A DNA stretch of 64,000 bases from Nitrososphaerales archaeon (GTDB lineage: Archaea; Thermoproteota; Nitrososphaeria; Nitrososphaerales; Gagatemarchaeaceae), in contig DASYXJ010000075.1 in the NCBI GenBank assembly GCA_035935095.1, forward strand, positions 1 through 64,000, written 5' to 3'. A program made the translations under genes and the position numbers. The notes beneath the pieces were generated by a model. It was given only the letters and a program-made list of their open reading frames with translations, was not told the origin of the DNA and did no database searches. This document shows positions 5,236 to 48,016 of this stretch, in pieces; the stretch's first letter is position 1, and each line of letters opens with the position of its first letter.

Positions 5236-6252
5236 CTACGGCTTCTGGAGCCCGATGCTGTTGATCAGTCCGCCTGAGTTCCCATCGACGACGAGGACAA
5301 TTTTGCCGTTCTGGTGGTCGTACCTCACGAACCAGACGGGCGCGTGAAGGAGCTCCGCCTCCCCCACGTCCGACTCGGTTGAAAGCTGTTGTACCATGTG
5401 ATGGGCCGCATGGGCCTTCACAGACTGGACCTGGTCCACAAAGGTCTTCGCCTGTGACTTCGCCGCATCCTCCCCAACATCCCCGTTGAGGACCTTCATC
5501 CCCTTCACCTTCGTCTCGTCGAAGATCACCCTCCCGTCCAGATTGAACTGGTAGTCCTTGGGCTGGTAATCGGTGAGCGCCTTGAGGCCTATGATGGGGA
5601 AGTTGTAGTTGTTGTCCATCTCGTAGGCCCTTCTGTTCCCCTGACCGCCCGCGAATCCTCCTCCGCCCATCATGGTCCCGAGGAGGACGCCCCCCATGAG
5701 TCCCCCGCCGCCGAAGCCGCCCCTCCCACCACCCATGGCTCCCCCCATGATGCCCGCTAGGGCGGCCGTCGTAGCAATCTGCCCGGCCTCAGCTGCCATG
5801 TCAACCGCAACGAGGGATGTCCTCGCCGAGACCGGGATCAACCAATACGGAACCATGGCTAGGTTCGCTTCTTCCAGCGTCGATGACTCCTGAAGGTGAC
5901 GGTGGAGGAGGCCTGTGTCCAGCATACCGTGTACCACCTTTAACACGTCATCCTGCTGAGTGAGCTTCAACGACAGCATCGTGTGCTTGTTTATGTTCTT
6001 CCACCCGTCGTTCCCCAGCGAAACACTGCTCCCGCAGTAGGCGCACGTGACCAACATCTCGCCGAAATTCGGAGATATCGGGGCCCCACAGTTGGGACAC
6101 TTGAGGGTGGTGGCGCCCGACGGAGCGAAAACCTGCTGAGTGCTCGACGGAGCTTGTTGCTGCCCCGATACGAGGCCTATCTTGGCTCCGCACTTCAAAC
6201 AAAATCCTGCGTCGTCAGGAAGCTGGGTGCCGCACTTCGGGCAGAACACCAA
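5236..6252 (-). CDS. zinc-ribbon protein with Gly/Met-rich linker and C-terminal conserved domain
   Basis: Two N-terminal ribbons (CPKCG..CLKCG; CPNCG..CAYCG), a GGFGGGG low-complexity linker, then a C-terminal globular region. Last gene of a three-gene minus-strand operon. Confidence 0.5.
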   Translation of the reverse strand: MVFCPKCGTQLPDDAGFCLKCGAKIGLVSGQQQAPSSTQQVFAPSGATTLKCPNCGAPISPNFGEMLVTCAYCGSSVSLGNDGWKNINKHTMLSLKLTQQDDVLKVVHGMLDTGLLHRHLQESSTLEEANLAMVPYWLIPVSARTSLVAVDMAAEAGQIATTAALAGIMGGAMGGGRGGFGGGGLMGGVLLGTMMGGGGFAGGQGNRRAYEMDNNYNFPIIGLKALTDYQPKDYQFNLDGRVIFDETKVKGMKVLNGDVGEDAAKSQAKTFVDQVQSVKAHAAHHMVQQLSTESDVGEAELLHAPVWFVRYDHQNGKIVLVVDGNSGGLINSIGLQKP

Positions 6253-6260
6253 TCAATCAC

Positions 6261-7349
6261 CTAGAGCTGCGTGCCACAGTTGTTGCAGAACTTCGCGCCC
6301 GCTGAAATAGGACTGCCGCAGTTGGGGCAGAACTTGCTTCCCCCTGCGGGTGTAGGGGGCCCAGTTGGTCCGGGCATCGTCGCGCCGCAGTTTGGACAGA
6401 ACTTCACAGAGGCAGCGACCAAGGACCCGCAGTTCGGACAGCTCCTTGTCGCGGCAGCTTGACCCATCCCTTGGGCCATTTGCCCTCCAATCGCATAACC
6501 TACACCCAATCCAGCTCCCAGTCCCGCCGTCACTCCAGCCCCTCCCGACGGGTTCTTCGCAGCGTCATCAATAGCTTTGCCAGTCTGGAATTGCATGTAG
6601 TTGACCCCAAGGACCTGCATCTCCGACCGGGTGTCGATGGCCTGTTGCACTTCGTCTGGGAGGCTGATTGTCAGTCCTGAAATCTTGTTGATTTCAATTC
6701 CGTACTGCCCCAAGTGGTCTGGACTGGTCGCTAACACTTCCTGTTCGATGTTGGTAAGATTGGCCGCCAGGTCTGTCACCTTTAGCCCCTGCGCCTTCAT
6801 CTTTCCCAGCGCGTTGTAGAGAAGAACGACTAACTGTTCCTTCAGTCTGCCTTCCACGTCGTCCGAGGTCTCAGCTCCGAAGGTACCCACGAATTGGTTG
6901 ATGAAGAGCTCGGGGGATGAAATCTTCCACCTGTACTCCCCGAACACCCTCAGGTTCACAATCCCGAAGGTAGGGTCAGTGAACGAGTAGGGCTCAGTGC
7001 TCCCGAACTTGCCGTCCAAGTACCTCTTGGGTATGTAGAATACTTCTGCCTCCTGCTGAACACCGGTGAAGAACTTCAGCAGCCCGCTCACGATGGGTGC
7101 GTTGATGTCAGTCAGCGCGTACCTGTTGGGCTGGTCGAAGTAGGTCAGCACCTTTCCATCCCTGTAGAAGACCGCAGTCTCGTCCTCTCTTACGACAATG
7201 TTGTCGTTCAGCCTGATGTTCCTGGGCACTCTCCAGAGTACGCTCCCTAGCTTGAACTGGTCGTCCCAGGCGATTGTCGTTGACCCCAGGAGACTCCCCC
7301 CTGAGGCCGGGACTGGGTCGGTTTTCTTTCCGAATACCATCTTTCTCAC
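6261..7349 (-). CDS. SPFH/band-7-like (COG4260 'virion core protein'-type) protein with three C-terminal zinc ribbons
   Basis: N-terminal ~280 aa resemble the Band_7_1/SPFH-like family. C-terminus carries CPNCG...CPNCG, CPNCG...CNNCG repeats. Confidence 0.55.
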   Translation of the reverse strand: MRKMVFGKKTDPVPASGGSLLGSTTIAWDDQFKLGSVLWRVPRNIRLNDNIVVREDETAVFYRDGKVLTYFDQPNRYALTDINAPIVSGLLKFFTGVQQEAEVFYIPKRYLDGKFGSTEPYSFTDPTFGIVNLRVFGEYRWKISSPELFINQFVGTFGAETSDDVEGRLKEQLVVLLYNALGKMKAQGLKVTDLAANLTNIEQEVLATSPDHLGQYGIEINKISGLTISLPDEVQQAIDTRSEMQVLGVNYMQFQTGKAIDDAAKNPSGGAGVTAGLGAGLGVGYAIGGQMAQGMGQAAATRSCPNCGSLVAASVKFCPNCGATMPGPTGPPTPAGGSKFCPNCGSPISAGAKFCNNCGTQL

Positions 7350-7888
7350 TGCCCGAGGGCTATGCCCTCTATTGCCTCTACCCTAAGCGACCACTTCTGC
7401 CTGATGTCTGCAACAGATTCTGCGAAGCCTCCCAATGCAGGCTGGATTGAATTCGGGGATGTGCTATCATAGCTAAGGCGCGAAGTTGCATCGTCCAGCT
7501 GGAATACTGTGCTGACGAAAGTGTAATCGTAATCGTAGAGCTTGTTGAGCTTGTCCTCGTTGACCTGTATTGGCGCCACCCAGCCCGCGTAACCTTGGGC
7601 CGCATGCCTTACCTCCCCGCTGAGCGCCTGAACCTGGGAGATCAGAGAGCCTATGCTTGTGAGGTTTGTCAGGTCTCCGGCTGTGGCCATCTGCTTCCTC
7701 ACCTGATCCAGGTTCCCTTTCACCTTGTCCAGCCTGTCCGCGACCTGGTTCCTTAGCAGCTCGTCCGAGACTCTGATGTCTTCCTTGCTTCTGTATCCTC
7801 TGAGGCCTGGAATGAGAAGCTGAAGTTTCTTCACTGCGCCTCTGTTGGCTTCTACCGTCTGCCTGATATCTGGGTTACCCTGAGACAA
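7346..7888 (-). CDS. hypothetical coiled-coil protein, first gene of SPFH/zinc-ribbon operon
   Basis: 4-nt overlap with the SPFH-like gene. Helical/coiled-coil N-terminus. Confidence 0.4.
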   Translation of the reverse strand: MSQGNPDIRQTVEANRGAVKKLQLLIPGLRGYRSKEDIRVSDELLRNQVADRLDKVKGNLDQVRKQMATAGDLTNLTSIGSLISQVQALSGEVRHAAQGYAGWVAPIQVNEDKLNKLYDYDYTFVSTVFQLDDATSRLSYDSTSPNSIQPALGGFAESVADIRQKWSLRVEAIEGIALGQ

Positions 7889-7917
7889 GAGCGTACAAAA
7901 GCCGATTCCTCCTCCAA

Positions 7918-7930
7918 CTAAATAAATATA
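7918..7930 (+). promoter_or_regulatory. TATA-like box upstream of integrase
   Basis: aaataaatata about 15-25 nt upstream of the GTG start at 7945. Confidence 0.3.
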
Positions 7931-7944
7931 ATCCGTTAGAAGCG

Positions 7945-9069
7945 GTGCATGAGGCGCCTGAGAAGGAGACCCAATTCCGGCGCTTCTATGAGAGAAAACC
8001 GCATTCTAGCCCTAAATGGGACGAATCCAGCAGGCTAGCAGGCATCATAGCCCAAGATAAGGCCATAACCGTCTATCTCACCAACCTAGCCAACAGACGA
8101 AGAAACAACGGGGAGGTATGCTACGGAACCAGGTGGAGAACAATCAACTCGGTACGCCACTTCCTACAATTCGTCCACAAGGACATCACTCCGACATCTC
8201 TGACAAAAATGATACAGGACACCAAGGAGCAGCACAAGAACGACGACTATGCCACGGACGACGCACTCCTTGCGTTTGTCTCAAGGCCATCCATCATAGC
8301 CAACGCACAGAGAGGAGCCTACGTCAAAGCCGTGTTCAAAGCGAACAGATGCCTCCTCCAGGCATCATTCAACACCTCATTCACGCATTCAACTAAGAAA
8401 ATCAGCCTAGGCATCCTGAAAGCGATCTACAACAATCTCGACGACGAACACAAGAACATAATCGACCTGCAAGCCTACGCAGGAGAAAGGGTGCAGGCTA
8501 TCTGCACTGTCCCAATTGACCAATGGGAAGACTTCGACAACAGATATACCATAATCCACATCCATGCTAGGCAGACGAAAGCGCGTAACGAACACATCTG
8601 TATCATCCCCCGGACTCTAGCAGACCAAATACGTAACATATGCAAGCTCACCAAGCGTGACCGACCATTCCCGAATTACGAAAGCCTCTGGCGCAAGATT
8701 ACCAGACTCGCCCTCGACAAATACGGGACTCGCCTGACAAGCCACTACCTACGAAAACGTTTCCACACCTTAGCCGGCAAGACAGCCATGCCCGTCAACT
8801 CGTGGGACTATCTTATGGGAGACAAGCAAACACACGGACACAACGCCGGGACATACACCCTTGAGGACTTTTCCGAACTCGTCCATGAGTACGACAAATA
8901 CCTAGCCCCTTACCTGTCAATCGAGGAACCAAAGGAACTGGATGACCCAAAGGACCCTTTCAAGACCACTGCGGAACTTGAACAACTACGTCAGGAGAAC
9001 AAGGAGCTTAGGGAGCATCTACTTAGCCTGACGAAGCTACTCAATGAACAGCTAACAGGGAGAGCTTAA
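7945..9069 (+). CDS. tyrosine-type site-specific recombinase/integrase
   Basis: C-terminal catalytic region with HxxR (LTSHYLRKRF) and downstream Tyr (GTYTL). Upstream Arg/Lys box (ARQTKARNEH). Coiled-coil tail. Confidence 0.75.
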   Translation: MHEAPEKETQFRRFYERKPHSSPKWDESSRLAGIIAQDKAITVYLTNLANRRRNNGEVCYGTRWRTINSVRHFLQFVHKDITPTSLTKMIQDTKEQHKNDDYATDDALLAFVSRPSIIANAQRGAYVKAVFKANRCLLQASFNTSFTHSTKKISLGILKAIYNNLDDEHKNIIDLQAYAGERVQAICTVPIDQWEDFDNRYTIIHIHARQTKARNEHICIIPRTLADQIRNICKLTKRDRPFPNYESLWRKITRLALDKYGTRLTSHYLRKRFHTLAGKTAMPVNSWDYLMGDKQTHGHNAGTYTLEDFSELVHEYDKYLAPYLSIEEPKELDDPKDPFKTTAELEQLRQENKELREHLLSLTKLLNEQLTGRA

Positions 9070-9081
9070 CAGGCTCCCCTG

Positions 9082-9094
9082 TTTTCTTTCTTTC
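9082..9094 (+). terminator. oligo-T tract after integrase
   Basis: ctcccctgttttctttctttc is archaeal-type T-rich termination sequence. Confidence 0.3.
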
Positions 9095-9136
9095 AATCGA
9101 TGACTAACTCGAAGGAGGAGAAGTGGCCAAGACAGT

Positions 9137-9367
9137 CTACGACCCACGGCACTTCAAACCCCATCTAAGCGAAAAAATACCAAGAACAAATAACAATACC
9201 GAAATCACTGGCAGATACCAATAGAGCAAAAACGGATGTTGAATTGACCAATTGTAGTAGGCATCCACTACAAAGAAGGATCCCACTAGGAAAAAGACGA
9301 TTGCAATCGAGATAGCTATTGCCGCGTTCGTACCTTGCCGCTTACCCATCCGCGCCATCGAAGACAC
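9137..9367 (-). CDS. small membrane protein (2 TM)
   Basis: Hydrophobic 76-aa ORF in the AT-rich island. Confidence 0.3.
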   Translation of the reverse strand: MSSMARMGKRQGTNAAIAISIAIVFFLVGSFFVVDAYYNWSIQHPFLLYWYLPVISVLLFVLGIFSLRWGLKCRGS

Positions 9368-9641
9368 GTTAACTCATGCACCGACTAAGTCCACCAGCGA
9401 AAGAGTCGGCCCCAAGGAGGCAATTTCCAACTTTCGCAGAGACCAATTGCCGAAACTATGAAGGAAAATCGGCATATAAGCCCTAATGAGCAATAACATC
9501 AAGCTACGCGGCGCCGCGCTTCGCTGCGGCGCTCGCGGAGGAGCCCTCTTGCAAATAAACGAGTGCTCCCCCAACCTCTTCCAGAAAAACCACACGGAAT
9601 GAAAATGAAGACTTAACACGAGCCTTTGACTCAGCTTCAAG

Positions 9642-10220
9642 GTGGACGACCCAACCATCGTCCTCCTCATCTTCTCGGGCCTTGCCGCAATCGGGGGCCT
9701 TGGCGTGCTCTTGACTTGGATCATCGCCTTCTGGAGGCGAGGCAAATTTGTCATTCAATTTGCTCACGGCGCTTCGTCAATTCAATGCCAACGGAGCACT
9801 GTTCGAACCTTTGACATCGAAGTCATATTCAGGGGACGAAGTGGTATCGAGACAAAGACTATCTTCTTCTATTTTCCACACCAACTCGGGCTCGCGAGTC
9901 CAGTGACAAAGAGTGTCCCACTCCTTACTGTCACACCTATTGCATCTGGACGTTTTGCCGACCATGACTATTTCGGTGTCGAGAATTTCTCCTTTCTCCC
10001 CGACGAAGCAATGAGAGTAACGTTTACACTAATCTTCCCGATACAGGTGGACAGTATGCAATCACATGTTCAGTTCACCCAGTTTCTGGAATCCCCAAAA
10101 TTCACACACTTAACGTCCAAGTCATCTGAACCCCCCAATACTTCTAACTCCTACTCGGGAACCACGGCGCATAGGACTCTCGGCGCTTGCCGTTCACTGT
10201 CTCCTGTGCAAGATCCATGA
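9642..10220 (+). CDS. hypothetical protein with N-terminal TM helix (island cargo)
   Basis: ORF in the AT-rich region. No domain recognised. Confidence 0.3.
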   Translation: MDDPTIVLLIFSGLAAIGGLGVLLTWIIAFWRRGKFVIQFAHGASSIQCQRSTVRTFDIEVIFRGRSGIETKTIFFYFPHQLGLASPVTKSVPLLTVTPIASGRFADHDYFGVENFSFLPDEAMRVTFTLIFPIQVDSMQSHVQFTQFLESPKFTHLTSKSSEPPNTSNSYSGTTAHRTLGACRSLSPVQDP

Positions 10221-10611
10221 GCCAAAGCCAAGCACCCTTATCGTCCGTGCCGCGCTCCACAAGACGAATCCTGGTCCCGTCCCTAACGGAGGTGATAACT
10301 AACGGCGCGCGGACAACACGAGCCCCGTTCATTGCTCAGTCCCCACATTGGCTGCAAGGCGACGCTTGAACTCCTCAAGGGTCACCCGCCGCCACCTCTT
10401 TGGCTTGCCCTCGAGCTCCCAGCAGCCGAAATGAAGAACCACTCGCCTTGATTTTGACCGCCAGACCGGAACGAACACGACAGCCTGTCCTTGGGAGAAC
10501 CCCTCCACGCACTCGAAACGAGCGCATCTAGGAGGACCATCAACCCATGCCATTCGGTCGAAAGTCGTTATGTGAAAATGCGGCTTAACAACAGTCGTCG
10601 GTGCTCCACGC

Positions 10612-11811
10612 TCAGGACAAAGGGCAGTCATTTTGGCCACCACTATCCCGAATACGAACCCACGGAGGGAGCAACGCGATGAACGGCTCATTCTCAGCAA
10701 CCAACTTCGCAGTATCCTCTGGAGGCACGCCACGCACAACGTGCATTTCGTGCCCATTAGGACAACAGACCTTCTTACGTTCAACATCATACTCGGTGCG
10801 TTTCGCGAGACGCAGTCCGAGAAACCGCATGAAAGGAGAATCGGGACTCTGACTCTTGGGACTCAAAGCCCCATAGTATCTTACCCGTTGCTTGCCCGCT
10901 CGAGCAGAAAGGGCCTCGCGAACCCAGTCGAGATCAACATCCCCCTCAACATTAACGTCAGCCCACTCAGAAAAGTCCTTGACCGGACTGCGGAACATAT
11001 ATGCTGTCCGATGATTCCATTCATCCCAACCTTCCTCATATCGAACATGAACGTTGACATCGTCCGCCTGAACTTCACCATACTCTGACTCCAAGACCTT
11101 CCTCCAAGAGGCACGAGCCTCAACAAACCGAGAAGGAAGACCTTTCACATCAACACCCGCGTCTTCCAGATGTCGCGTCGAAAAGTGAATAACACGAGCG
11201 GGCTTGACTATACAACCACCATCGACAACCTCAGGCTCGAATCCAAAAGCCAAGGTGATGCCGTGACAATGAACGTGTTTAGGGTCGAACTTACCATTCC
11301 CACTGGGCCTCTTAGAACCCCACCATTGGGGCACAACAATTGTCAACAACTGAACAGACTCAGGAATCTTCAACCTCCGTCGAAGGTAACTCTCGAACCA
11401 TTTCACAGACATGGCAGTAAAGCGATCAATCCCATCCCTCATTGAAACAAAACCACGAAACTCGTATGGAAGCGTAGTCTCCCACCGCCAAAAGCGGATG
11501 GTGGTATGCAAGGACGAGGTTATCTCGCGCATCCGATAACGGAGATAGTCCCAAAGGTGCCTCGTTTCAGCAGCGGAACAAAACGGACACCAACGGGAAC
11601 GACACAGCATACGCTTCCAAGCACCAAAGGATTCCTCACCGTCGCAAGCCCACCAAAAAGACTTGGCACCACACTGAGAAATGCGCTTGGCCTCGACATA
11701 ACCTACAACACGACGAACAATACCAAGCCAGGCCTCGGAAGACTTCTTACGGAACAGATCTTTCCCGTACACGAGTCTGTATTCCTGCCGGCGAACCCTG
11801 TACGGCGTCAT
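10612..11811 (-). CDS. putative HUH-superfamily rolling-circle replication initiator (Rep)-like protein
   Basis: HVHCHGITLAF (His-hydrophobic-His) motif followed by Tyr-containing segments (RTAYMF, RYYGALSP). Cys-rich N-terminal region. Location in the integrase island. Confidence 0.4.
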   Translation of the reverse strand: MTPYRVRRQEYRLVYGKDLFRKKSSEAWLGIVRRVVGYVEAKRISQCGAKSFWWACDGEESFGAWKRMLCRSRWCPFCSAAETRHLWDYLRYRMREITSSLHTTIRFWRWETTLPYEFRGFVSMRDGIDRFTAMSVKWFESYLRRRLKIPESVQLLTIVVPQWWGSKRPSGNGKFDPKHVHCHGITLAFGFEPEVVDGGCIVKPARVIHFSTRHLEDAGVDVKGLPSRFVEARASWRKVLESEYGEVQADDVNVHVRYEEGWDEWNHRTAYMFRSPVKDFSEWADVNVEGDVDLDWVREALSARAGKQRVRYYGALSPKSQSPDSPFMRFLGLRLAKRTEYDVERKKVCCPNGHEMHVVRGVPPEDTAKLVAENEPFIALLPPWVRIRDSGGQNDCPLS

Positions 11812-12035
11812 AGATTCAATCTCAACCCCCGCAGGAGCTTCAGGGCATAATCGAAACCGCAGTTAATGCAGCAGAAACGCGCCAGGTAAGATTCGAAAGC
11901 GCCTAGGTAGCGATAGCTTCCATCGTAGGAAAAGACCTGACCACACCCAAGGCACTCAAACACACCCATTTTCTCAGGCACTAGTAGGCTTCAAAGCAGA
12001 TATAATGGTCAGGCGAATATACTACTGGTATATTC

Positions 12036-12479
12036 ATGGTTCGAAGATGTTTTCATATTTTGGCCGTACAGATTCTGGAGTTATGCAATCAGAAACCGAT
12101 GTCCGTGGTCGATCTGTACTACGCCATGAAGATGAATTATCCGACCATATACCGGACCGTCAGGCCAATGCTCCTTCTAGAGTGGATCAGAGAAGCAAAG
12201 AAGGATGGATCAAGGGTCTTCAACGCAAAGTACTATCACGAGATGATAGGGAAAGACATCGGTAAGATGAGAGTTTTCTCCTTCAGAATTGATCCCAAAG
12301 ATTACTATTATGTGCCTACCGACCTCGGACAGGAAGTTCTCAAGACTTGGAAGCATTTGGTGGACATCCAGATGGAAATCCACACAGTCATGCTCCAAGA
12401 ATTCCTCTTGAAACTCCCAGTTGTGCATCCGGAACTGAAAAGAAAACATAAACCAAGAAAGTACGAGGATACCGAATGA
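12036..12479 (+). CDS. winged-helix transcriptional regulator
   Basis: wHTH-like N-terminal region (MSVVDLYYAMKMNYPTIYRTVRPMLLLEWI). Basic C-terminus. Confidence 0.45.
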   Translation: MVRRCFHILAVQILELCNQKPMSVVDLYYAMKMNYPTIYRTVRPMLLLEWIREAKKDGSRVFNAKYYHEMIGKDIGKMRVFSFRIDPKDYYYVPTDLGQEVLKTWKHLVDIQMEIHTVMLQEFLLKLPVVHPELKRKHKPRKYEDTE

Positions 12480-12496
12480 GCCCGAATGAAAGCTCG

Positions 12497-12862
12497 CTAC
12501 CTATTCTCGCCGCTGCGCCATACAGCACCTATGTTTACTCCTGCACTAAATGCAAACAAGAGACTTTCAAGAACTGCAATTGCAAATATGTCAACAACAT
12601 AAGAATCAGAAACAACAAACCCAACCGAAGAAGCAACTAACGCAAGCAATGATGTGATGATTGCTAGGATTCCTAGCACAACATTCCCGACGAAAAGCCA
12701 CAACATCAGCACCCGTCCGGGGAATCTGTGCCATCGAGTTACCTGATGCAGCCTAAACTCAAACAAGGAGATCTCTTTCATCGCATTAACGGTCAAGAGC
12801 CCGCCTACAGACATGAATAGCGCACTTGCCGTAATCACAGCCTGAAAGAATGCGTCTGACAT
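12497..12862 (-). CDS. small membrane protein (3-4 TM)
   Basis: Hydrophobic profile. Confidence 0.4.
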   Translation of the reverse strand: MSDAFFQAVITASALFMSVGGLLTVNAMKEISLFEFRLHQVTRWHRFPGRVLMLWLFVGNVVLGILAIITSLLALVASSVGFVVSDSYVVDIFAIAVLESLLFAFSAGVNIGAVWRSGENR

Positions 12863-13029
12863 TCATCACGGGGTCTATAGAGCCTCGATAAATGCAATGG
12901 CCAATGAACTACCGCAACTCCTGAGAACCAGCTCAACCATTGGAACCCGTAGTCCTTTGACCCCACTTTAGAAAGAGCCCAAGACAGCTTGTAACGCTTT
13001 AAAGATAGCCTTGCTTCATCTGCTTTAGC

Positions 13030-14268
13030 TTGCTTACCCGTATATCCATTCTAAACTTCAAGGGCATCAGCAGGATAACTTTACCTCTAGCCCCATTGAC
13101 GATTTTCATTGGGGAGAACGGCACCGGAAAATCAACCGTTCTTCAGACTCTAAGCATGCTCAAGCGTTCGGCAAACCAAATGCAAGTCTTCACAGACCTA
13201 CCCTACGCCAACCTCGGTCAACTTAGTAACCTAATTCCTCCAGCAAAAGTATCCGAGATAGAAATTTCTGGCTGGGAAATGATTTCTCTCCCAGCAATTC
13301 CGACAGATAAAGTGTCATTTACTCATAGGGTCGGTTTCGATGTCAATGGCCTGTTCTCAAACACAACCGAATTGAAAATCGGAGAACAGATTGTTCTGAA
13401 CGATTGGACCCGAGCGTTTCAAAGTATCGAGCCCCGTGACTGGAAAATAAGAAAAGCGCACTTCAATCTCTCTCCTCAACCCAACATTGGCGTAGCATTC
13501 AATTTGGGTGGCTATAGTTTCGAAGGTTCACCGACACCTGATGAAACAAAGAGCTCTCAGGAAACCTACAACGACCTCACAAAACTTGCGTCATTGATTT
13601 CATCCATTCTGCAAAGAATCTTCATCGTCTCTCCCCAAAGGGGACTGACCGATCCATTTTACGGGCTGCAGCCATCGCCGACAGAAGAATACTCGCCTCG
13701 TCAAGGAACACAAGTAATGGGTTCGAGCTTGGCGACTAACCTAGAGTACAATCGTTTGAACATTGCCCAGATTTCCGATTGGGAACGCGAGATTCTAGGA
13801 GTCGGCGTAAGCACCAAACTGCAGCCAGGGCCGGTCATTTACGTGAAAAACCCAGAACGAGGCACTGACTTCGTGAACGAGGGTTTTGGCTCCAACCAAC
13901 TTCTATTCGTTCTCGAACGCATAGCGAACACACCTGATTATTCCATTGTGGGAATCGAAGAGCCCGAAATACACCTCCATCCAAAAGCACAATTCAATTT
14001 CGGAAAATGGTTAGCAAAAACCCTTCCATTCCTTAGAAAGCAGGTGATAATCACGACGCACAGTTCTGACATTATTGCGGGAATTCTAGCTGGCGTTCAT
14101 CAAAAAACAATCAAACCCGAATATGTTTCATTGTTGTTCTTCGAACAAAAGGACAAGAAGATTGAGGCATCGATTTCAGAGATTGACCAGGACGGAAAGG
14201 TCACTGGGCCGGCTCTAAGATCCTTTGTTGAATCAGCCGCAGCCCAACTGTCAGAATACACACGATAA
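13030..14268 (+). CDS. ABC/SMC-head-like AAA ATPase (AAA_21/AAA_15-type, PtuA/OLD-like)
   Basis: N-terminal strand (ISILNFKGI), Walker A (GENGTGKST), D-loop/Walker B (IVGIEEPEIHLHP), H-loop (VIITTHSSDII). TTG start. Confidence 0.8.
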   Translation: MLTRISILNFKGISRITLPLAPLTIFIGENGTGKSTVLQTLSMLKRSANQMQVFTDLPYANLGQLSNLIPPAKVSEIEISGWEMISLPAIPTDKVSFTHRVGFDVNGLFSNTTELKIGEQIVLNDWTRAFQSIEPRDWKIRKAHFNLSPQPNIGVAFNLGGYSFEGSPTPDETKSSQETYNDLTKLASLISSILQRIFIVSPQRGLTDPFYGLQPSPTEEYSPRQGTQVMGSSLATNLEYNRLNIAQISDWEREILGVGVSTKLQPGPVIYVKNPERGTDFVNEGFGSNQLLFVLERIANTPDYSIVGIEEPEIHLHPKAQFNFGKWLAKTLPFLRKQVIITTHSSDIIAGILAGVHQKTIKPEYVSLLFFEQKDKKIEASISEIDQDGKVTGPALRSFVESAAAQLSEYTR

Positions 14269-14706
14269 GTGTCTTGGCCTTTGCCCTACATAGTAGACAA
14301 GAGCGTTATGGTTTCAGTTTGGAAAGAGTTCGACATGAACTCAGCCAAGTTTCTCATAAAGGTCCATGAAACCTGTGAAAGAGTCTTTGCAACCGACACG
14401 ATGCAGGCTCTATACAAGCGGCTGCTCAAAGAAGTTGAAGAAAGGCAGAGGTATGGTCCGACCTTATTGAACTCTCTTCAACTATACCTCCTTTGGAAGG
14501 AAACAAAGAAAGTCCAAATCATCTTGACATCGACGCTAACACCTGTCGATGGCGAAGAAGAAGTAGAAGACGAAGACAGAGAATTCATACGATTAGCAAA
14601 GGTAACTGGAGCAATCCTAGTCACATATGATAAGAAATTGCTCAAACTGGCGAGCATATTGGGCTATCAAGCAGCAAAGCCATCAGACTTGCTACAGAAG
14701 CCTTAA
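14269..14706 (+). CDS. PIN-like domain protein (putative nuclease)
   Basis: Abuts the ATPase stop by 1 nt. Acidic residues spaced as in PIN (YIVDKS..., ...EDREF..., ILVTYDKKL). Weak call. Confidence 0.4.
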   Translation: MSWPLPYIVDKSVMVSVWKEFDMNSAKFLIKVHETCERVFATDTMQALYKRLLKEVEERQRYGPTLLNSLQLYLLWKETKKVQIILTSTLTPVDGEEEVEDEDREFIRLAKVTGAILVTYDKKLLKLASILGYQAAKPSDLLQKP

Positions 14707-14741
14707 ACAACCAACTTGGCAGAAGCATGAAGTAGGAATCT

Positions 14742-15266
14742 TTGTTCTATGAAGAAGAACGAAGGACAAAGCCGACACAGGCACTGAAGATTCTAGTTTA
14801 CCGTCGAGACAAAGGAATCTGCCGTCTCTGCGGCGAAAAGGTAGACCCATTGGACTTCGATATCGGACATAACACCGCGTTTGCTAGGGGTGGCAAACTG
14901 AGCCTCAAAAACGCAATCCTACTCCACCCTAGATGTAACAGGTCAATGCAGAAGCTCAACCTAAAAGAAGCAAGGACAGTTCTTGGCATGCCAGAGACTC
15001 AGGAAGAACAAGCAAAGAAAATCCTAAGAAGCCTCGGCATGAATCAACTGAAATATCTCGCCAAGCAAAGCTTCATCAAACTCAAATCAAGAGTCGAGGA
15101 AGGATTCTTTAGCACCACAGTGATTCAACCGTCTAAAAGACAATATGTCAACGCTCTCGCTAAGGCTTTGAACGTCGAAGAGATCAAATCAAAAATCACT
15201 TCTATGCCGAAGCCTGAAAGAAAAAAGAAACCAGCTAAGAAGAAAAGTGGTTTCTGGGACTTCTGA
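14742..15266 (+). CDS. HNH endonuclease with Lys-rich C-terminal tail
   Basis: CRLCGEKVDPLDFDIGHNTAFARGGKLSLKNAILLHPRCNRSM is a classic HNH motif (Cys pairs, catalytic His, Asn). Confidence 0.8.
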   Translation: MFYEEERRTKPTQALKILVYRRDKGICRLCGEKVDPLDFDIGHNTAFARGGKLSLKNAILLHPRCNRSMQKLNLKEARTVLGMPETQEEQAKKILRSLGMNQLKYLAKQSFIKLKSRVEEGFFSTTVIQPSKRQYVNALAKALNVEEIKSKITSMPKPERKKKPAKKKSGFWDF

Positions 15267-15343
15267 CCGTTATGGAACCGTACAGGTCTTGCCTTGACCG
15301 ACTACCAGTAGAAGACAAACTTTGCTGTACTCTCACCTCCCTC

Positions 15344-16138
15344 TCATTGGGTCACATCCAACGCCCCGGTATACCAAGTCGCGACATTCCCGTCTGCTAG
15401 GACATAGATGACAAAAGTGTAATGGCCGGGTGCTGCATTTGAGGAATGTATGCTGAACGTATACGTCCCTGAAGTCCCCCCTGGTGCAAGGTCACTTACT
15501 ATCTGACTGGATGGAGATATTGACATTCCTGTCACAGCGGGTGTAAACAGAACTGACGCACTCAGGTGTGTGTAAAGGACATTTTGACCAGAACTCAGAC
15601 TGTGAACCTCAAAATGAATGGTCGTACTATCATTTCGACCAATGCTGCTCTTTCCAAGAGGATGGAACAGATCCGAATACCATCCAAAACCCGGCACCTG
15701 AACCTTCGGAAGGACATACCATGTGAATTGAGGGCCGACGACTGAGTGAGACCCGTTCACGTCGTGGTAGTTAATATTGGTGGATACAACATACACCCCA
15801 TTTTGAACATCCTTGAAAGAGACATCACTTGACACGTCAATAGATTGACCTTGAAGTATTGTGACAGATGGCATGTTCACTGCTCCAAAAGCAGGAGAGT
15901 TCAAATTCAGAACAACATTGTTGGCATCTCCTCCAGAATCTAAGATTCCAAAATCAAGATGGTTGACTTCTCCCGCGGTTGGATTCTGTATGGGTACTGA
16001 GACGGACAAGATGGCTGCCTTCTTGGCTGTCTGATACGAATGAAATGAAGTCAAGACAAAGGCTCCGCCAACAAGGATCATCACAGCCAATAGCACCACC
16101 GCCGTCCACGATCCATTCGCGTTCCGTCCAAACATCAA
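15344..16138 (-). CDS. N-terminally anchored extracellular beta-rich protein
   Basis: Signal-anchor helix (WTAVVLLAVMILVGGAFVL) then a Ser/Thr/Asn/Val-rich region. Confidence 0.45.
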   Translation of the reverse strand: MMFGRNANGSWTAVVLLAVMILVGGAFVLTSFHSYQTAKKAAILSVSVPIQNPTAGEVNHLDFGILDSGGDANNVVLNLNSPAFGAVNMPSVTILQGQSIDVSSDVSFKDVQNGVYVVSTNINYHDVNGSHSVVGPQFTWYVLPKVQVPGFGWYSDLFHPLGKSSIGRNDSTTIHFEVHSLSSGQNVLYTHLSASVLFTPAVTGMSISPSSQIVSDLAPGGTSGTYTFSIHSSNAAPGHYTFVIYVLADGNVATWYTGALDVTQ

Positions 16139-16215
16139 GTGGAGTACGGATGAGCCCAGTTCAAAGGAGTGTCGGCTTTAAAGGAGCTTCTAGGCGTCTT
16201 CTAAGCGCTTAGAAG

Positions 16216-16800
16216 ATGCCCCAAACATGGCTGAAGAAGGCAATAGGGATCTTCTGGGTTGCAGTTGTCCCTGTTTTACTGACCACTTGGGCATCTACGC
16301 ATCTGCTGGTGCCTTGGCAACCAAACGAATTACCTGTATTTCTGATTCTTACGGTTGTATCATTCCTTCATTTGGCTAACCAAGTGCAATATGACCCAGG
16401 GAGGATTAAACAAGTAAGTTTTCGCAATGTTCCGCCTGAAATAAAAGAATTAATTGTTGAGACAACAAATAGAGGCGAATACATCAACATCGAAATCCTC
16501 AACTGTCTCGATGGTCCCGAGAAGTTGTCCCAAAACGCCTTGAGCATTAAGGTGACGAATGAAAGGGGAATCAAACTGACGCCAACTCAAGCTCGGGAAT
16601 ACGTCCTCAAATTGGAGGGTGAAAGACTCATAGAGAGTCCGATTACCATGGGGAAACAACCGAAAGAGTACCAACTAACCCATAAGGGTAAATGGGTTCG
16701 GCTCGTTATTTCACAGGTTTTGCCCAAAACAAACTTCGAGTTCTATTGGAGAAACTACGTAGGTCTTAGGAATATTCCTCCACAACCACAAGAAACGTAG
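16216..16800 (+). CDS. membrane-anchored winged-helix protein
   Basis: Two N-terminal TM helices. C-terminal wHTH-like segment (LTPTQAREYVLKLEGERLIES). Confidence 0.4.
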   Translation: MPQTWLKKAIGIFWVAVVPVLLTTWASTHLLVPWQPNELPVFLILTVVSFLHLANQVQYDPGRIKQVSFRNVPPEIKELIVETTNRGEYINIEILNCLDGPEKLSQNALSIKVTNERGIKLTPTQAREYVLKLEGERLIESPITMGKQPKEYQLTHKGKWVRLVISQVLPKTNFEFYWRNYVGLRNIPPQPQET

Positions 16801-17116
16801 GAACTGGACGGGAATATGAGCGGTCACCAAATGCAAAATCGGTTAGATAGCGGACTCCAACGCATCAACTTCTCTTGTCAAAGAATCGACTGTCTCGAGC
16901 CGAGAAATCTCCATCGTCCAATTAAGTCAGTCTAAATGGCTATGAACAAACCTTCAGCATCACAAAAGCAATGGAATCCCGAAATGGAGGCAAACTATGC
17001 CCATGTCAGAAGAAGAGCAAAATGCTTTTCCTCTCCATGAGTGTATGAATAATGCACCATTAACGGATTATAAATATGGCGAAGGTTCCCTCTAGATTTG
17101 GAACAGGTCTCGAGTC

Positions 17117-17917
17117 TTGGACCTTGAAAAGCTCCGGATTGGATGCAGCGGCTGGTCCTACAAGGACTGGCAGGGCCTATTCTACCCGAAGGGACTGGCG
17201 CCTAAAGATTTCCTGGGCCACTATTCTAAAGTCTTCAACTCCGTCGAGATAGATTCCAGCTTCTACCGAATCCCGAACCAGTTCATGATAACCCAGTGGC
17301 GGAACAGCACCCCAGAAGGGTTCCTCTTCTCGCCGAAGCTCCCAAAGAAGATAACCCACGAAAAAAAGCTGAAGGATTCAGAATCAACGCTCGTCTTTTT
17401 CTACAGCGTAGTCAGCAAACTCAAGGAAAAGCTCGGACCCATTGCCATCCAGCTTCCCCCTTCTATCAAACTCAGCACACACCTCGAGCTGATCAAGGGC
17501 TTCATTTCGCAACTCAGCCCCGAGTTCAAGCACGCGATAGAATTCAGGCACAAGTCCTGGTTCGTTCCCGAGGTCTACTCTCTCCTTAGAAAGAACAACA
17601 TAGCGATGATCTGGTCGCTCAACCAGTATCTCGAGACTCCCCCGGAGGTAACCGCCGATTTCGTCTACCTCAGGATGGTCGGGGACAGGGAAATCACTGA
17701 GTTCAGCGGCATCCAGAGGGACCGTTCCGACGACATGAAGCGATGGGCCTCGTCGGTCAAGGAGAATTCGAGCAAGTTCGAATCCGGGTACGTCTTCTTC
17801 AACAACCACTTCGCCGGCTTCAGCCCCGAGTCTGCTAACGAGTTCCGCCGTCTCCTTGGGCTCATGGAGCTTGAATGGAAGGCGCAGGGGACGGAGCAAA
17901 GGACTCTCTTCGGGTAG
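17117..17917 (+). CDS. DUF72 family protein (YecE-like)
   Basis: IGCSGWSYKDWQGLFYP N-terminal signature of DUF72. Confidence 0.8.
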   Translation: MDLEKLRIGCSGWSYKDWQGLFYPKGLAPKDFLGHYSKVFNSVEIDSSFYRIPNQFMITQWRNSTPEGFLFSPKLPKKITHEKKLKDSESTLVFFYSVVSKLKEKLGPIAIQLPPSIKLSTHLELIKGFISQLSPEFKHAIEFRHKSWFVPEVYSLLRKNNIAMIWSLNQYLETPPEVTADFVYLRMVGDREITEFSGIQRDRSDDMKRWASSVKENSSKFESGYVFFNNHFAGFSPESANEFRRLLGLMELEWKAQGTEQRTLFG

Positions 17918-45933: not shown

Positions 45934-47065
45934 CCAAGTCCTCGACATCCTCTATCCCGATTGAAACCCTTACCAGGGTATCGGGAATCCCGGTCTTCTC
46001 CCTAGCCTTCGCAGACATCTGGGTGTGAGTCATGTTGTATGGCTGCGAGACGAGGGTCCCGATTCCGCCAAGACTCGCTGCGAGGCTCGCAATCTTCAAC
46101 GACTCGGTGAACTTCATCGCGTCCTTTGTGGACCCTTTGATTTCGATGCTCATCATCCCCCCGAAACCCCTCATCTGTTTCTTAGCCAGTGCGTGTTGTG
46201 GGTGAGTTTTCAGTCCGGGATAGTGCACCTGCGAGACTTTCCTGTGTTTGGAGAGGAACTCGGCAATGGCCATAGCGTTCGAGTTCTGCTGCCTGACCCT
46301 TATTGCCATGGTCTTCATTCCCCTGAGCACGAGCCAGGCGGGGAGAGGGTCGAGAGTTCCGCCGAAGTCTCTCCTCATCATCTTGATTGCATGCGCCTTC
46401 TTCTTGTTGGTCACCGCGGCACCGGCTATTAGGTCTGAGTGCCCGTTGAGGTATTTTGTAGCACTGTGAAGCACTACGTCGGCCCCAAGCTCTAGCGGGT
46501 TCTGATTGATGGGAGAAGCGAACGTGTTGTCCACCATCAAGATTGCGCCTCCCTGGTGGGCGAGCTTTGCCACCTTCGCTAGGTCGACGAGCTTCAGAGT
46601 GGGGTTGGTCGGCGACTCCACATAGACGATTCGCGTGTTCTTCCTGATTCCTCTTTCCATCGCCCCGAGGTCGGTCGTCTCCACGAGGTTTGTTGCAAAT
46701 CCCAAGTCCGGCAGAATATCGTGAATGAGGGAGTAGGCTCCCCCATAGAGGTCGCGGATGCCCAGGACGAGCATACCTTTCTTGAGGAACGAGAAGACCG
46801 AAGTCGAAATCGCAGCCATCCCCGACGAAAACGCGGCTGCATCCCCTCCATGCTCCAAGGCAGCGAGCTTCCTCTCTAGGGTGACGACCGTGGGGTTGTC
46901 CCATCTCGAATAGACATACCCCTGCTTCCCAGAGACCGCCACGGGAACCTCTTCTGCCTTGGTAAACCCAAAGGTCGCTGTTTCATAGATTGGCGTGTTG
47001 ATGGAGCCGGTCGCTTCGTCAAAGGGTTCTGCTTCGTGGACCGACCTGGTAGAATCCCCTGCCAA
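45899..47065 (-). CDS. PLP-dependent Cys/Met metabolism enzyme (cystathionine gamma-synthase/lyase or O-acetylhomoserine sulfhydrylase family)
   Basis: Fold-type I pattern with the Lys in SATKYLNGHSDLIAGA. ~388 aa. Confidence 0.85.
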   Translation of the reverse strand: MAGDSTRSVHEAEPFDEATGSINTPIYETATFGFTKAEEVPVAVSGKQGYVYSRWDNPTVVTLERKLAALEHGGDAAAFSSGMAAISTSVFSFLKKGMLVLGIRDLYGGAYSLIHDILPDLGFATNLVETTDLGAMERGIRKNTRIVYVESPTNPTLKLVDLAKVAKLAHQGGAILMVDNTFASPINQNPLELGADVVLHSATKYLNGHSDLIAGAAVTNKKKAHAIKMMRRDFGGTLDPLPAWLVLRGMKTMAIRVRQQNSNAMAIAEFLSKHRKVSQVHYPGLKTHPQHALAKKQMRGFGGMMSIEIKGSTKDAMKFTESLKIASLAASLGGIGTLVSQPYNMTHTQMSAKAREKTGIPDTLVRVSIGIEDVEDLVSDFSQALSAI

Positions 47066-47137
47066 CAGAAGTCGACTCCATGGCTGACCGTAATAAATAG
47101 CGAATACGACGCCTCAGACGGCATTATGTCGAGGCTC

Positions 47138-47944
47138 TCATGGTATCGCACGGATATCGTATGTTTGAATAACTTCTGAAGAGTCTGAATAGACGACGAC
47201 CACATAGACTTTGAATGCTCCCCCGACCATGACGGGCCGCTGTTGAGTGCTTCCATTGAAAGTTTGACCGAGATCAAGAGGTTGAGCGTGGGCGGTTTGC
47301 TGGACATAGCCTCCTGCACAAAGAAACGGGAAGAATGCTAGAAGCGACGTGCCGTTCCATAGCTCCGCATAAATGAACTGGATGGACTTCGCATCCGCAT
47401 TTGAAACCGTGAGACTCCAATCGGAGAAGTTTCTCTGAAATTCGTTGTTGTAAACTGCGGCCCTCAGCGTGCTGGAGGCCGAGAACTGCCCGGAAAACTG
47501 TGTTTGAGTTGAGTTGCTGAAGGTCAAGGGATAGTCGGACGAGGATATCCCAGATGAGTTCATTATGATTATCGAAACCTGGTAGGTGAAAGTTTTCAAA
47601 AATGGAATACTCATGCATGTGTTGACGGTGTTCTCCTGACCGGGTTGCAATCTTGATGAGTTCCCATAGGCAATGTTGTCGTTCGTGCGGATCAAGTAAT
47701 TGACATAGGCTGTGGCGTTTCCCGAATTCCTCATCCGCAATTCCCAGATTCCAATCGAATAATTGAAGCCAGGAAGTTTGATTAGGACAATTCTGTTCGA
47801 TTCAACTGCGAATCCGTGCCTCCCGGTTCTTCCAGCCTGAGGGAGATAATAGACAAGATAGGTCCCTACCGCTGCACCAATAATCACGATCACCAGCGAG
47901 ACCGCGATAACTTTGGTTCTGTGGCGTGGGGCTGCTTCGCTCAT
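47138..47944 (-). CDS. N-terminally anchored extracellular protein, many N-glycosylation sequons
   Basis: TM anchor then an Asn/Ser/Thr-rich beta region. AT-richer than neighbours. Confidence 0.45.
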   Translation of the reverse strand: MSEAAPRHRTKVIAVSLVIVIIGAAVGTYLVYYLPQAGRTGRHGFAVESNRIVLIKLPGFNYSIGIWELRMRNSGNATAYVNYLIRTNDNIAYGNSSRLQPGQENTVNTCMSIPFLKTFTYQVSIIIMNSSGISSSDYPLTFSNSTQTQFSGQFSASSTLRAAVYNNEFQRNFSDWSLTVSNADAKSIQFIYAELWNGTSLLAFFPFLCAGGYVQQTAHAQPLDLGQTFNGSTQQRPVMVGGAFKVYVVVVYSDSSEVIQTYDIRAIP

Positions 47945-48016
47945 CGACTTGGTTTGCCTGTCAAGCAGTGTATGAGTCTATCGTATCTTGATAAGCAACC
48001 CGGGAGATTACGCACC

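Follow-up and report, generated by a model that had tools for sequence, protein, structure and literature searches.

The window studied here comprises the first 64,000 nucleotides of contig DASYXJ010000075.1 (assembly GCA_035935095.1) of a Nitrososphaerales archaeon, and it harbors an insertion of about 9 kb between two divergently oriented host genes. On the left lies the gene coding for p180, a LIMLP_15305-like protein and the first of an operon that continues with genes for an SPFH protein and a zinc-ribbon protein, and on the right lies a gene coding for a DUF72 protein. The insertion covers window positions 7930-17077, i.e. 9,148 bp when counted with one copy of the duplicated core described below, and codes for a tyrosine recombinase, a Rep-like protein of the HUH superfamily, homologues of defense proteins and several membrane proteins (Table 1). 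It very probably represents an integrated plasmid-like mobile element of the class known in Thaumarchaeota as cryptic integrated elements (CIEs). An earlier note, made from the letters of this DNA alone, had proposed an integrated element between the SPFH operon and the DUF72 gene, a proposal which the empty sites, the composition and the related insertions in other genomes bear out.

The element differs from its surroundings in composition. Its guanine plus cytosine (GC) content is 48.0% (positions 7931-17077), compared with 56.3% for the host, i.e. the rest of the window, and amounts to 51.4% in the backbone carrying the integrase and Rep-like genes and 45.5% in the cargo block (11982-16981). 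Host windows of 9.1 kb have a GC standard deviation of 1.0% and a minimum of 54.4%; along the profile, the flanks lie at about 56-60% and the values fall to 44-52% across about 8.0-17.0 kb. The tetranucleotide distance between element and host is 0.337, compared with 0.132 +/- 0.015 (maximum 0.166) for host windows of 5 kb. The drop with respect to the flanks that the earlier note had perceived is real according to both computed profiles. Outside the element, two milder GC dips are present at positions 1001-2000 (49%) and 46001-48000 (52.6%).

Among the host proteins, DUF72, p180 and DinB had no exact match on record. When p180 was used as a query with one genome per species, 24 loci were retrieved. 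The DUF72 gene adjoins p180 divergently in 21 of them, and element genes lie between the two in none of these 21. The earlier note had suggested a comparison with related genomes, in which the same genes at the same place with host-like composition would speak against an insertion; the opposite was found, as all 21 loci with this gene order represent an empty site. Alignment of the empty and occupied spacers shows that the element is bounded by an 8-bp direct repeat, ATAAATAT (the core), and a perfect 9-bp inverted repeat (AATCCGTTA / TAACGGATT, the arms) lies immediately inside it. The empty site reads ...CCAACTAAATAAATAT/GGCGAAGG..., around the core ...CTAAATAAATAT/GGCGAA..., and the junction sequence of the empty attachment site (attB) is ...CTAAATAAATATGGCGAAGG.... 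In the window, the left junction reads ...CCAACTAA-ATAAATAT-AATCCGTTAGAAGCGGTG... and the right one ...CCATTAACGGATT-ATAAATAT-GGCGAAGG..., the occupied site having overall the form ...CTAA-ATAAATAT-AATCCGTTA...TAACGGATT-ATAAATAT-GGCGAA.... Rejoining the two ends gives an attachment site of the element (attP) of the form TAACGGATT-ATAAATAT-AATCCGTTA (junction ...CACCATTAACGGATTATAAATATAATCCGTTAGAAGCGGTG...), with a 9-8-9 layout in which two perfect arms surround an asymmetric 8-bp spacer; the arms would represent the two half-sites bound by the recombinase in a lox-like attP, which integration moves apart. Of the 21 empty sites, 14 contain the core, at a distance of about 33 nt from the start of p180 and about 39 nt from that of DUF72; it lies within the only strongly conserved block of the spacer, whose position and conservation suggest a TATA-like element of a divergent archaeal promoter. 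No tRNA or other RNA genes were found at the element borders. The spacers of the empty sites range from 65 to 425 bp, most of them being of 65-82 bp (mainly 73-82 bp). Three are larger (L022, 9576-10000, 425 bp; L013, 9869-10000, 132 bp; L017, 2295-2401, 107 bp); all three lack the ATAAATAT core and could be scars of other events at the site.

The earlier note had drawn attention to a 12-bp inverted repeat, TATAATCCGTTA, as possible element termini or att core. Its two copies (7927-7938 on the forward strand and 17061-17072 on the reverse strand) are the only matches in the 64 kb, even with one mismatch allowed, for a chance expectation of 0.07 and with two or more matches in 0 of 100 shuffles. 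The repeat consists of one 9-bp arm and 3 bp of the core. It does mark the two ends, but it is neither the att core, which is the 8-bp direct repeat that the note had missed, nor the terminal inverted repeat of a transposon. The alignment of the border regions, proposed as a search for longer imperfect repeats, gave nothing significant beyond the 9-bp arms (47 of 1000 shuffles were as good), and a GGTGCAT motif was discarded, its unequal spacing being unconvincing. Within the element, a search allowing up to 3 mismatches revealed no internal att-like sites that would point to tandem or nested elements. With an inverted repeat enclosed by an 8-bp direct repeat, the element formally resembles a cut-and-paste transposon with terminal inverted repeats of 9-12 bp and an 8-bp target-site duplication. 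Such a transposon is practically excluded, since no transposase is present in the element and the same 8-mer occurs at one site in six hosts; moreover, the 8-mer together with the arms makes up a lox-like site that lies within or beside the gene of a recombinase.

The six hosts are those of the window and of five further occupied sites (L026, L027, L029, L048 and L049), which were recovered through homologues of the Rep-like protein and the integrase. The integrase is 74% identical to that of the window in L026, 76% in L029, 82% in L048 and 81% in L049, and is not on the partial contig L027; the Rep-like protein is 79% identical in L026 and 77% in L027, is lacking in L029, and is not on the contigs of L048 and L049. 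All five lie between p180 and DUF72 in different host backgrounds. Wherever a junction is contained in these contigs, its core and arm are identical, the six occupied sites reading ..CTAAATAAATAT/AATCCGTTA.., with the left arm AATCCGTTA identical in all five siblings. The empty-site genome L005 matches both flanks of the metagenome contig L026 at 100% identity, the two flanks overlapping on it by precisely the 8-bp core, and the empty site L006 matches the flank of L027 at 97%. These comparisons indicate an element that is site-specific and recently mobile, the integration being the work of its tyrosine recombinase and not transposition. That the block is instead ancestral and was deleted in the relatives is barely conceivable: the divergences of element and hosts are similar in size, which would speak for it, but the empty sites show a single core (14 of 21) in an otherwise conserved promoter, the composition is foreign, and the flanks of an occupied contig are indistinguishable from an empty-site genome. 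In addition, a Logan contig (L001, from SRR12347814) is 100% identical to window positions 7827-17284; it begins 103 bp before attL and ends 207 bp beyond attR, which shows that the assembly graph breaks just outside the element on both sides. These breaks are compatible with strain variation or with mixed occupied and empty populations in the sample.

Table 1. Features of the integrated element and of its host flanks in the window
Feature	Coordinates	Strand	Characteristics
Host SPFH operon gene	6261-7349		Left flank
Host p180 (LIMLP_15305-like)	7346..7888	-	NCBIfam NF047596, E = 2.4e-9; left flank, first gene of the p180-SPFH-zinc-ribbon operon
Left att core (attL), ATAAATAT	7922..7929	+	Host-derived; in the conserved TATA-like block of the putative divergent promoter
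Left arm, AATCCGTTA	7930..7938	+	Perfectly complementary to 17061-17069
int(C), tyrosine recombinase body	7945..9069	+	374 aa from GTG; frame already open from 7930
Two-transmembrane-segment protein, 76 aa	9137..9367	-	Slot A; hydrophobic stretches in translation; not conserved in siblings
62-aa backbone open reading frame	10144..10332	-	Kept in L026, L027 (tblastx) and L029 15630-15788 (aligned reading frame); no Pfam match
74-aa open reading frame downstream of Rep	10329..10553	-	Called on the Logan contig; 61% identical in L027 (tblastx); no Pfam match
HUH-superfamily Rep-like protein	10612..11811	-	399 aa; HUH motif and fold
Putative winged-helix regulator, 147 aa	12036..12479	+	Starts slot B; weak Pfam matches to HTH_45 (0.0063) and TrmB (0.097)
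Multi-transmembrane-segment protein, 121 aa	12497..12862	-	Hydrophobic segments in translation; no family match
OLD/ABC-type ATPase, NsnB-like, 412 aa	13030..14268	+	PADLOC NsnB, 2.8e-42, full length
145-aa ATPase partner	14269..14706	+	Start abuts the ATPase stop codon; PIN label unverified
HNH endonuclease, 174 aa	14742..15266	+	Pfam HNH, 2e-5; PHROG HNH families down to 2.3e-8
264-aa cargo protein	15344..16138	-	N-terminal transmembrane segment; no significant family match; not in siblings
194-aa cargo protein	16216..16800	+	Two N-terminal transmembrane segments; no family match; not in siblings
int(N), putative	16986..17077	+	GGAGG 16986-16990; ATG 16997 and 17003; 27 codons ending in the core
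Right arm, TAACGGATT	17061..17069	+	Presumed second attP half-site; identical in L026, L027 and L029
Right att core (attR), ATAAATAT	17070..17077	+	
Host DUF72 gene	17117..17917	+	Pfam DUF72, 1.9e-59; right flank

The integrase belongs to a family of divergent tyrosine recombinases represented by 97 clusters of homologues, mostly from metagenome-assembled genomes (MAGs) of Nitrososphaerales; a protein deposited at NCBI for one Nitrososphaerales MAG is identical to that of the window. The window protein itself has no Pfam match, PF00589 being matched by 7 of 32 family members (best 5.4e-7), and it scores 33 bits (E = 3.9e-8) with NCBIfam XerA_Arch, whose cut-off is 220 bits, and 7.5e-5 with the integrase family phrog_216. 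No variation is seen among the 32 sequences at R182, K212, R270 and Y304 and very little at H267 and H299, and these positions likely represent the catalytic R, K, H-x-x-R, H/W and Y in their usual order and spacing. After the catalytic tyrosine, a conserved coiled-coil-like tail (ELEQLRQENKELREHL...; window 8950-9066, residues about 335-370), with weak Pfam HALZ or SlyX matches in 5 of the 32 members, may serve as an oligomerization helix. Among more distant relatives, related arms lie upstream of the integrases of L032 and L033 (AATCAGTTA, with the same core) and of L038 and L046 (AATTCGTTA or AATGCGTTA), and searches for the second ends of L030 and L038 returned only repeats at chance level. 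The integrase of L046 (8007-8959) lies in three reading frames and represents a decaying copy, and a tRNA-Ser(GCT) is present 0.4-1.3 kb upstream of the integrases of L038 (7559-7639) and L046 (6620-6704).

While the earlier note had described the recombinase as intact, its gene is present but probably truncated at the 5' end by integration, as its reading frame is open across the rejoined attP to a conserved ATG in the window, L026 and L029. About 95 bp of the right end are conserved among the four elements for which it is available, one of them being L029, which lacks Rep, and an invariant AAATGGAGGCAA block containing GGAGG lies 6-9 nt before the conserved ATG of the putative N-terminal part, int(N). 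The other two frames of the right end carry 2-3 stops each in the window, L026 and L029. In the integrated state, int(N) reads through to a stop at 17093-17095, and the rejoined integrase would be of 404-410 amino acids in these three elements, with 406 in the window. In this full-length protein, attP would correspond to codons 21-30, the arms and core coding for P-L-T-D-Y-K-Y-N-P-L, of which the left arm AATCCGTTA would provide N-P-L in the circle. It is likely that the integrase gene is cut in two by integration, giving int(N) and int(C), in the layout of the suicidal (type I) integrases. In L032 (1242-1416), L034-36 and L041-43, conserved coding of the integrase N-terminus is present without an upstream start codon, the open frame extending over 58 to about 100 codons ahead of the first start, which suggests that the whole 97-cluster family may be of the gene-splitting type.

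The main alternative for this gene is an intact type II integrase starting at GTG 7945, with attP just upstream and overlapping its promoter, and with the 95 bp of the right end acting as accessory (arm-type) sites or as a promoter. A GTG or TTG at this position, five codons after the arm, is kept in all five siblings covering it, so there is room for a classical intact integrase. Moreover, no excess of third-position changes is seen in the 27 N-terminal codons among the four right ends counted, and the conservation of the right end could therefore reflect DNA-binding sites and not coding. The N-terminal extension was also considered as a homologue of the N-terminus of intact distant integrases and rejected, the alignment being unconvincing and only the lengths agreeing. 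We nevertheless consider an intact integrase unlikely, since the right end is open in the integrase phase alone in three siblings and has a conserved ATG and GGAGG, three other subfamilies have no start codon ahead of the conserved N-terminal coding part, and P0033 has a serine at the putative start position, its open reading frame going on upstream.

The Rep-like gene with a HUH motif noticed earlier is supported both by its motifs and by a match to the HUH nuclease fold. The protein displays in order an N-terminal C...C...H...C..CPxC cluster, motif I (EFTxP, T113), a PHxH motif, a tyrosine motif HRLxYxxRxPV (Y271 and R274) and a C-terminal CPxCG ribbon. Across 41 sequences, T113, H181, Y271 and R274 are invariant and H183 is nearly so (at least 90%); in the HVHCH string originally pointed out, the conserved pair is the second and third histidines (H181 and H183). 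Homologues are rare, with 4 among 5.8 billion clustered proteins and 64 clusters when 1.84 billion representatives were searched with a profile. Pfam gives no match for the window protein, whose match to the NCBIfam IS91 model (E = 0.0069) is well short of the cut-off; Zn_Tnp_IS91 is found in 8 of the 41 family members and Y2_Tnp, weakly (0.014), in 2. Searching solved structures with the sequence profile gave zinc-ribbon noise alone. The Rep-like protein thus belongs to a small family without a Pfam model of its own. Its structural model is confident and matches the folds of Helraiser (score 8.0, the best), the NS1 nucleases of Parvovirus (7.9) and Bocavirus (7.2), the Rep protein of adeno-associated virus (6.5), SIRV1 ORF119 (6.1) and TrwC (5.5), and a library of viral folds returned, as weak matches, microvirus Rep proteins and HRPV-1 ORF1. 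Since there is a single invariant tyrosine and given the motif order, the modeled protein would be more in keeping with a rolling-circle initiator than with a Y2 transposase or a relaxase. With IS91/Helitron transposases and phiX174/pC194-type Rep proteins it has in common the HUH fold, the order of the motifs and a zinc-binding domain at the N-terminus, but it differs from IS91/Helitron proteins by its one invariant tyrosine and the absence of a helicase domain. That it is an IS91/Helitron-like rolling-circle transposase moving the element, with the integrase as a passenger, appears very improbable. While the Helraiser Helitron transposase ranks first among the fold matches and some family members match Zn_Tnp_IS91 or Y2_Tnp, L029 has identical junctions at the same site without Rep, the same 8 bp flank every copy, and a direct repeat with inverted arms beside an integrase gene is characteristic of tyrosine recombinases, not of IS91.

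Comparison of the siblings gives a backbone organized as attL - int(C) - slot A - 62-aa open reading frame - 74-aa open reading frame - Rep - slot B - int(N) - attR. The 62-amino-acid protein could be guessed to be a regulator or a directionality factor. The winged-helix regulator of the earlier note stands as putative given its weak match to HTH_45, and a homologue (34% identity) is coded just downstream of a distant integrase of the same family in L041 (1866-2204); it may travel with this integrase family. The small membrane proteins and the two membrane or surface proteins exist as genes, and their translations contain transmembrane segments. For the proposed ATPase/PIN/HNH cassette, family matches support the ATPase, which also matches Pfam AAA_15 (6e-27), AAA_21 (5e-19) and DUF3696 (0.0017), and the HNH endonuclease, whereas the PIN label could not be verified. 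The 145-amino-acid partner has only 2 homologues and no Pfam, PADLOC, PHROG or NCBIfam PIN match, its AlphaFold 2 model is unusable (pLDDT 44.5), and its resemblance to PIN is at the motif level alone (IVDKSV...LVTYDKK). The ATPase (67% identity) and this partner (56%) are paired again, without the HNH gene, on a JGI contig (L047, 2-1204), and conservation of the N-terminal motif YI(V/I)DKSV ahead of the called methionine suggests that the annotated start is probably too far downstream.

Defense cargo, as proposed in the earlier note, is supported by family-level homology in the window and in the siblings, and sequence homology indicates that the cargo is mostly of this kind and differs between siblings: L029 codes for a type IIG restriction-modification enzyme (E = 0), L026 for an NsnA/PD-T4-2_A-like DUF262 protein (7e-64) together with RiboL-PSP HEPN, and L048 for a DndB/DpdB-like protein. 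In L029 (14563-15597), a protein of 310-344 amino acids with an N-terminal hydrophobic segment, many N-x-S/T motifs and no family match is coded beside the restriction-modification gene. The window ATPase shares the AAA_15 + DUF3696 architecture of NsnB from the Menshen system NsnABC (PMC12065111), but no NsnA (ParB-DUF262) is present in the window element, so that the cassette is not a canonical Menshen; HNH is not mentioned among the NsnC effector domains (PMC12065111). The pairing of an ATPase with an HNH protein recalls Septu (PtuAB), but the PtuA matches are much weaker (1e-16) and PtuB is not matched. By homology, the cassette would be neither a canonical Menshen nor a Septu system.

A small provirus, for example of the pleolipovirus type, in which the membrane proteins and the ATPase would be virion or assembly parts, is a quite improbable reading. 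Its size of about 9 kb, a rolling-circle Rep, an ATPase and several membrane proteins would suit it, as would the weak matches of the Rep model to Halorubrum pleomorphic virus 1 ORF1 and to microvirus Rep proteins. However, L026 and L029 share the backbone but have neither the membrane proteins nor the ATPase, the latter is of the OLD/ABC defense type, and PHROGs gave no match to a structural-protein family. The search of plasmid and virus collections that the earlier note had recommended turned up no relative, neither of the integrase nor of the Rep-like protein in IMG/VR and PLSDB, and none of the Rep-like protein in the INPHARED phages. With no structural genes, membrane proteins and ATPase unshared, and no IMG/VR relative, the element is not a provirus by the tests made.

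Several observations nevertheless weigh against an integrated, self-replicating element moved by its own split integrase, in addition to the start codon at 7945 and the codon-position counts. The replication origin was not located, and the region upstream of Rep is not conserved in three siblings; L029 lacks Rep at the same site, and Rep is therefore dispensable for residence there. Read from the empty-site sequences, attB has no arms resembling those of attP. The 24-nt attP has no exact match in JGI metagenomes and IMG/VR, so that no circular junction that would show excision was found. The catalytic domain of the SSV1 integrase has a structure in the PDB, and the integrase profile gave no sequence match to any PDB chain at E <= 10, presumably including this one. 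The divergence of the sibling integrases (74-82% amino-acid identity) resembles that of the hosts (about 75-79% for p180) and would thus also be compatible with long co-residence plus loss. Finally, transfer or packaging genes are absent from the element.

Taking these points into account, the following life cycle of an integrated plasmid-like element appears most probable. The free form would be a circle of 9,148 bp with a lox-like attP inside the 5' part of its own integrase gene. The integrase would recombine this attP with the same 8 bp, ATAAATAT, at the TATA-like center of the divergent promoter, of about 80 bp, between the p180/SPFH operon and DUF72. Integration would duplicate the core, leave one arm at each end and split the integrase into int(N) at the right end, with the ribosome-binding site and 27 codons, and int(C) at the left end. 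Int(C) could still be made from the GTG or TTG, directly behind the host TATA-like block, and excision would be the task of Int(C) or of the intact integrase of a related element. The circle would be copied by rolling-circle replication begun by the HUH endonuclease, as its fold and motifs suggest, and the rest of the element would be exchangeable cargo, mostly for anti-virus defense, explaining its retention by the hosts. It is possible, though doubtful, that these insertions represent an undescribed archaeal "defense shuttle" lineage combining a split integrase with an unannotated HUH Rep, in which an attP located in the first 30 integrase codons would be aimed at the host TATA box, a hybrid promoter of host and element would control the truncated integrase and hence excision, and the two slots would be refilled with different defense systems. 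If so, suicidal integrases (the 97 clusters) would have a wide distribution among mesophilic Nitrososphaerales and Bathyarchaeia, and would not be mainly hyperthermophilic.

With its inverted arms around a spacer, the rejoined attP is built like loxP and FRT, whose layout is 13-8-13. It is likewise built like dif, where the layout is 11-6-11 (PMC8371274). Unlike in these sites, only attP has arms here, attB shares the 8-bp spacer only, and the site would double as coding sequence of the recombinase. The pSAM2-type actinomycete integrative and conjugative elements carry a tyrosine integrase and a rolling-circle Rep for copying the excised circle, have tRNA targets and harbor an excisionase and FtsK-like transfer genes. 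The pairing of integrase and Rep is similar here, but neither a tRNA target nor an excisionase or FtsK-like genes were seen. The thaumarchaeal CIEs are of less than 20 kb, carry an integrase and lack viral or conjugation hallmark genes (Krupovic et al. 2019, PMC6563490); their att sites can be as short as 8 bp (PMC6563490; PMC8371274), 15 of 68 targets are intergenic, and restriction-modification cargo is known (PMC6563490). The present element resembles them by its small size, integrase, 8-bp att site, intergenic target and defense cargo. Among CIEs, NitAQ6f-E2 codes for a rolling-circle Rep and NitEve-E3 has an integrase split on integration (PMC6563490), whereas the present family would unite these two rare features. 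Further differences are a Rep without detectable sequence kinship to any Pfam Rep family, hosts that belong to a high-GC group of Nitrososphaerales MAGs, and a single promoter site occupied in at least six hosts with differing cargo.

Suicidal integrases are specific to archaea, and in some of the related int(C) genes an in-frame start codon has been retained (PMC8371274). As in SSV1, pTN3 and pT26-2 (PMC8371274; PMC7253208), attP lies here, in silico, inside the integrase open reading frame, which would be split into int(N) and int(C). However, their att sites are of 40-50 bp and lie in tRNA genes (PMC8371274), whereas here the identity is of 8 bp, the target is an intergenic promoter and only about 27-32 codons would be cut off; moreover, the described hosts are mostly hyperthermophiles, while the present ones are known as environmental MAGs alone. 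With an unannotated Rep family, a short int(N) and a promoter target, the element extends a known class and leaves current views standing. Nearly all that is known of mobile elements in Nitrososphaerales comes from genome mining, and very few of them have exact borders, a defined target and variants for comparison. The present case provides a base-exact attB and attP, the latter with perfect dyad symmetry, six insertions, 21 empty sites and a backbone of few genes, and its recombination is directly testable in vitro. It suggests that gene-splitting integrases may be common outside hyperthermophiles, and that one promoter site may act as a docking point exchanging type IIG restriction-modification, DUF262-HEPN, DndB-like and ATPase-nuclease systems.

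The host operon on the left of the element (window 5236-7888) comprises p180, an SPFH/Band_7 protein with C-terminal double zinc ribbons, and a zinc-ribbon protein of 338 amino acids. Its p180-SPFH core is kept in all 24 genomes retrieved, and the zinc-ribbon gene was detected in most of them.

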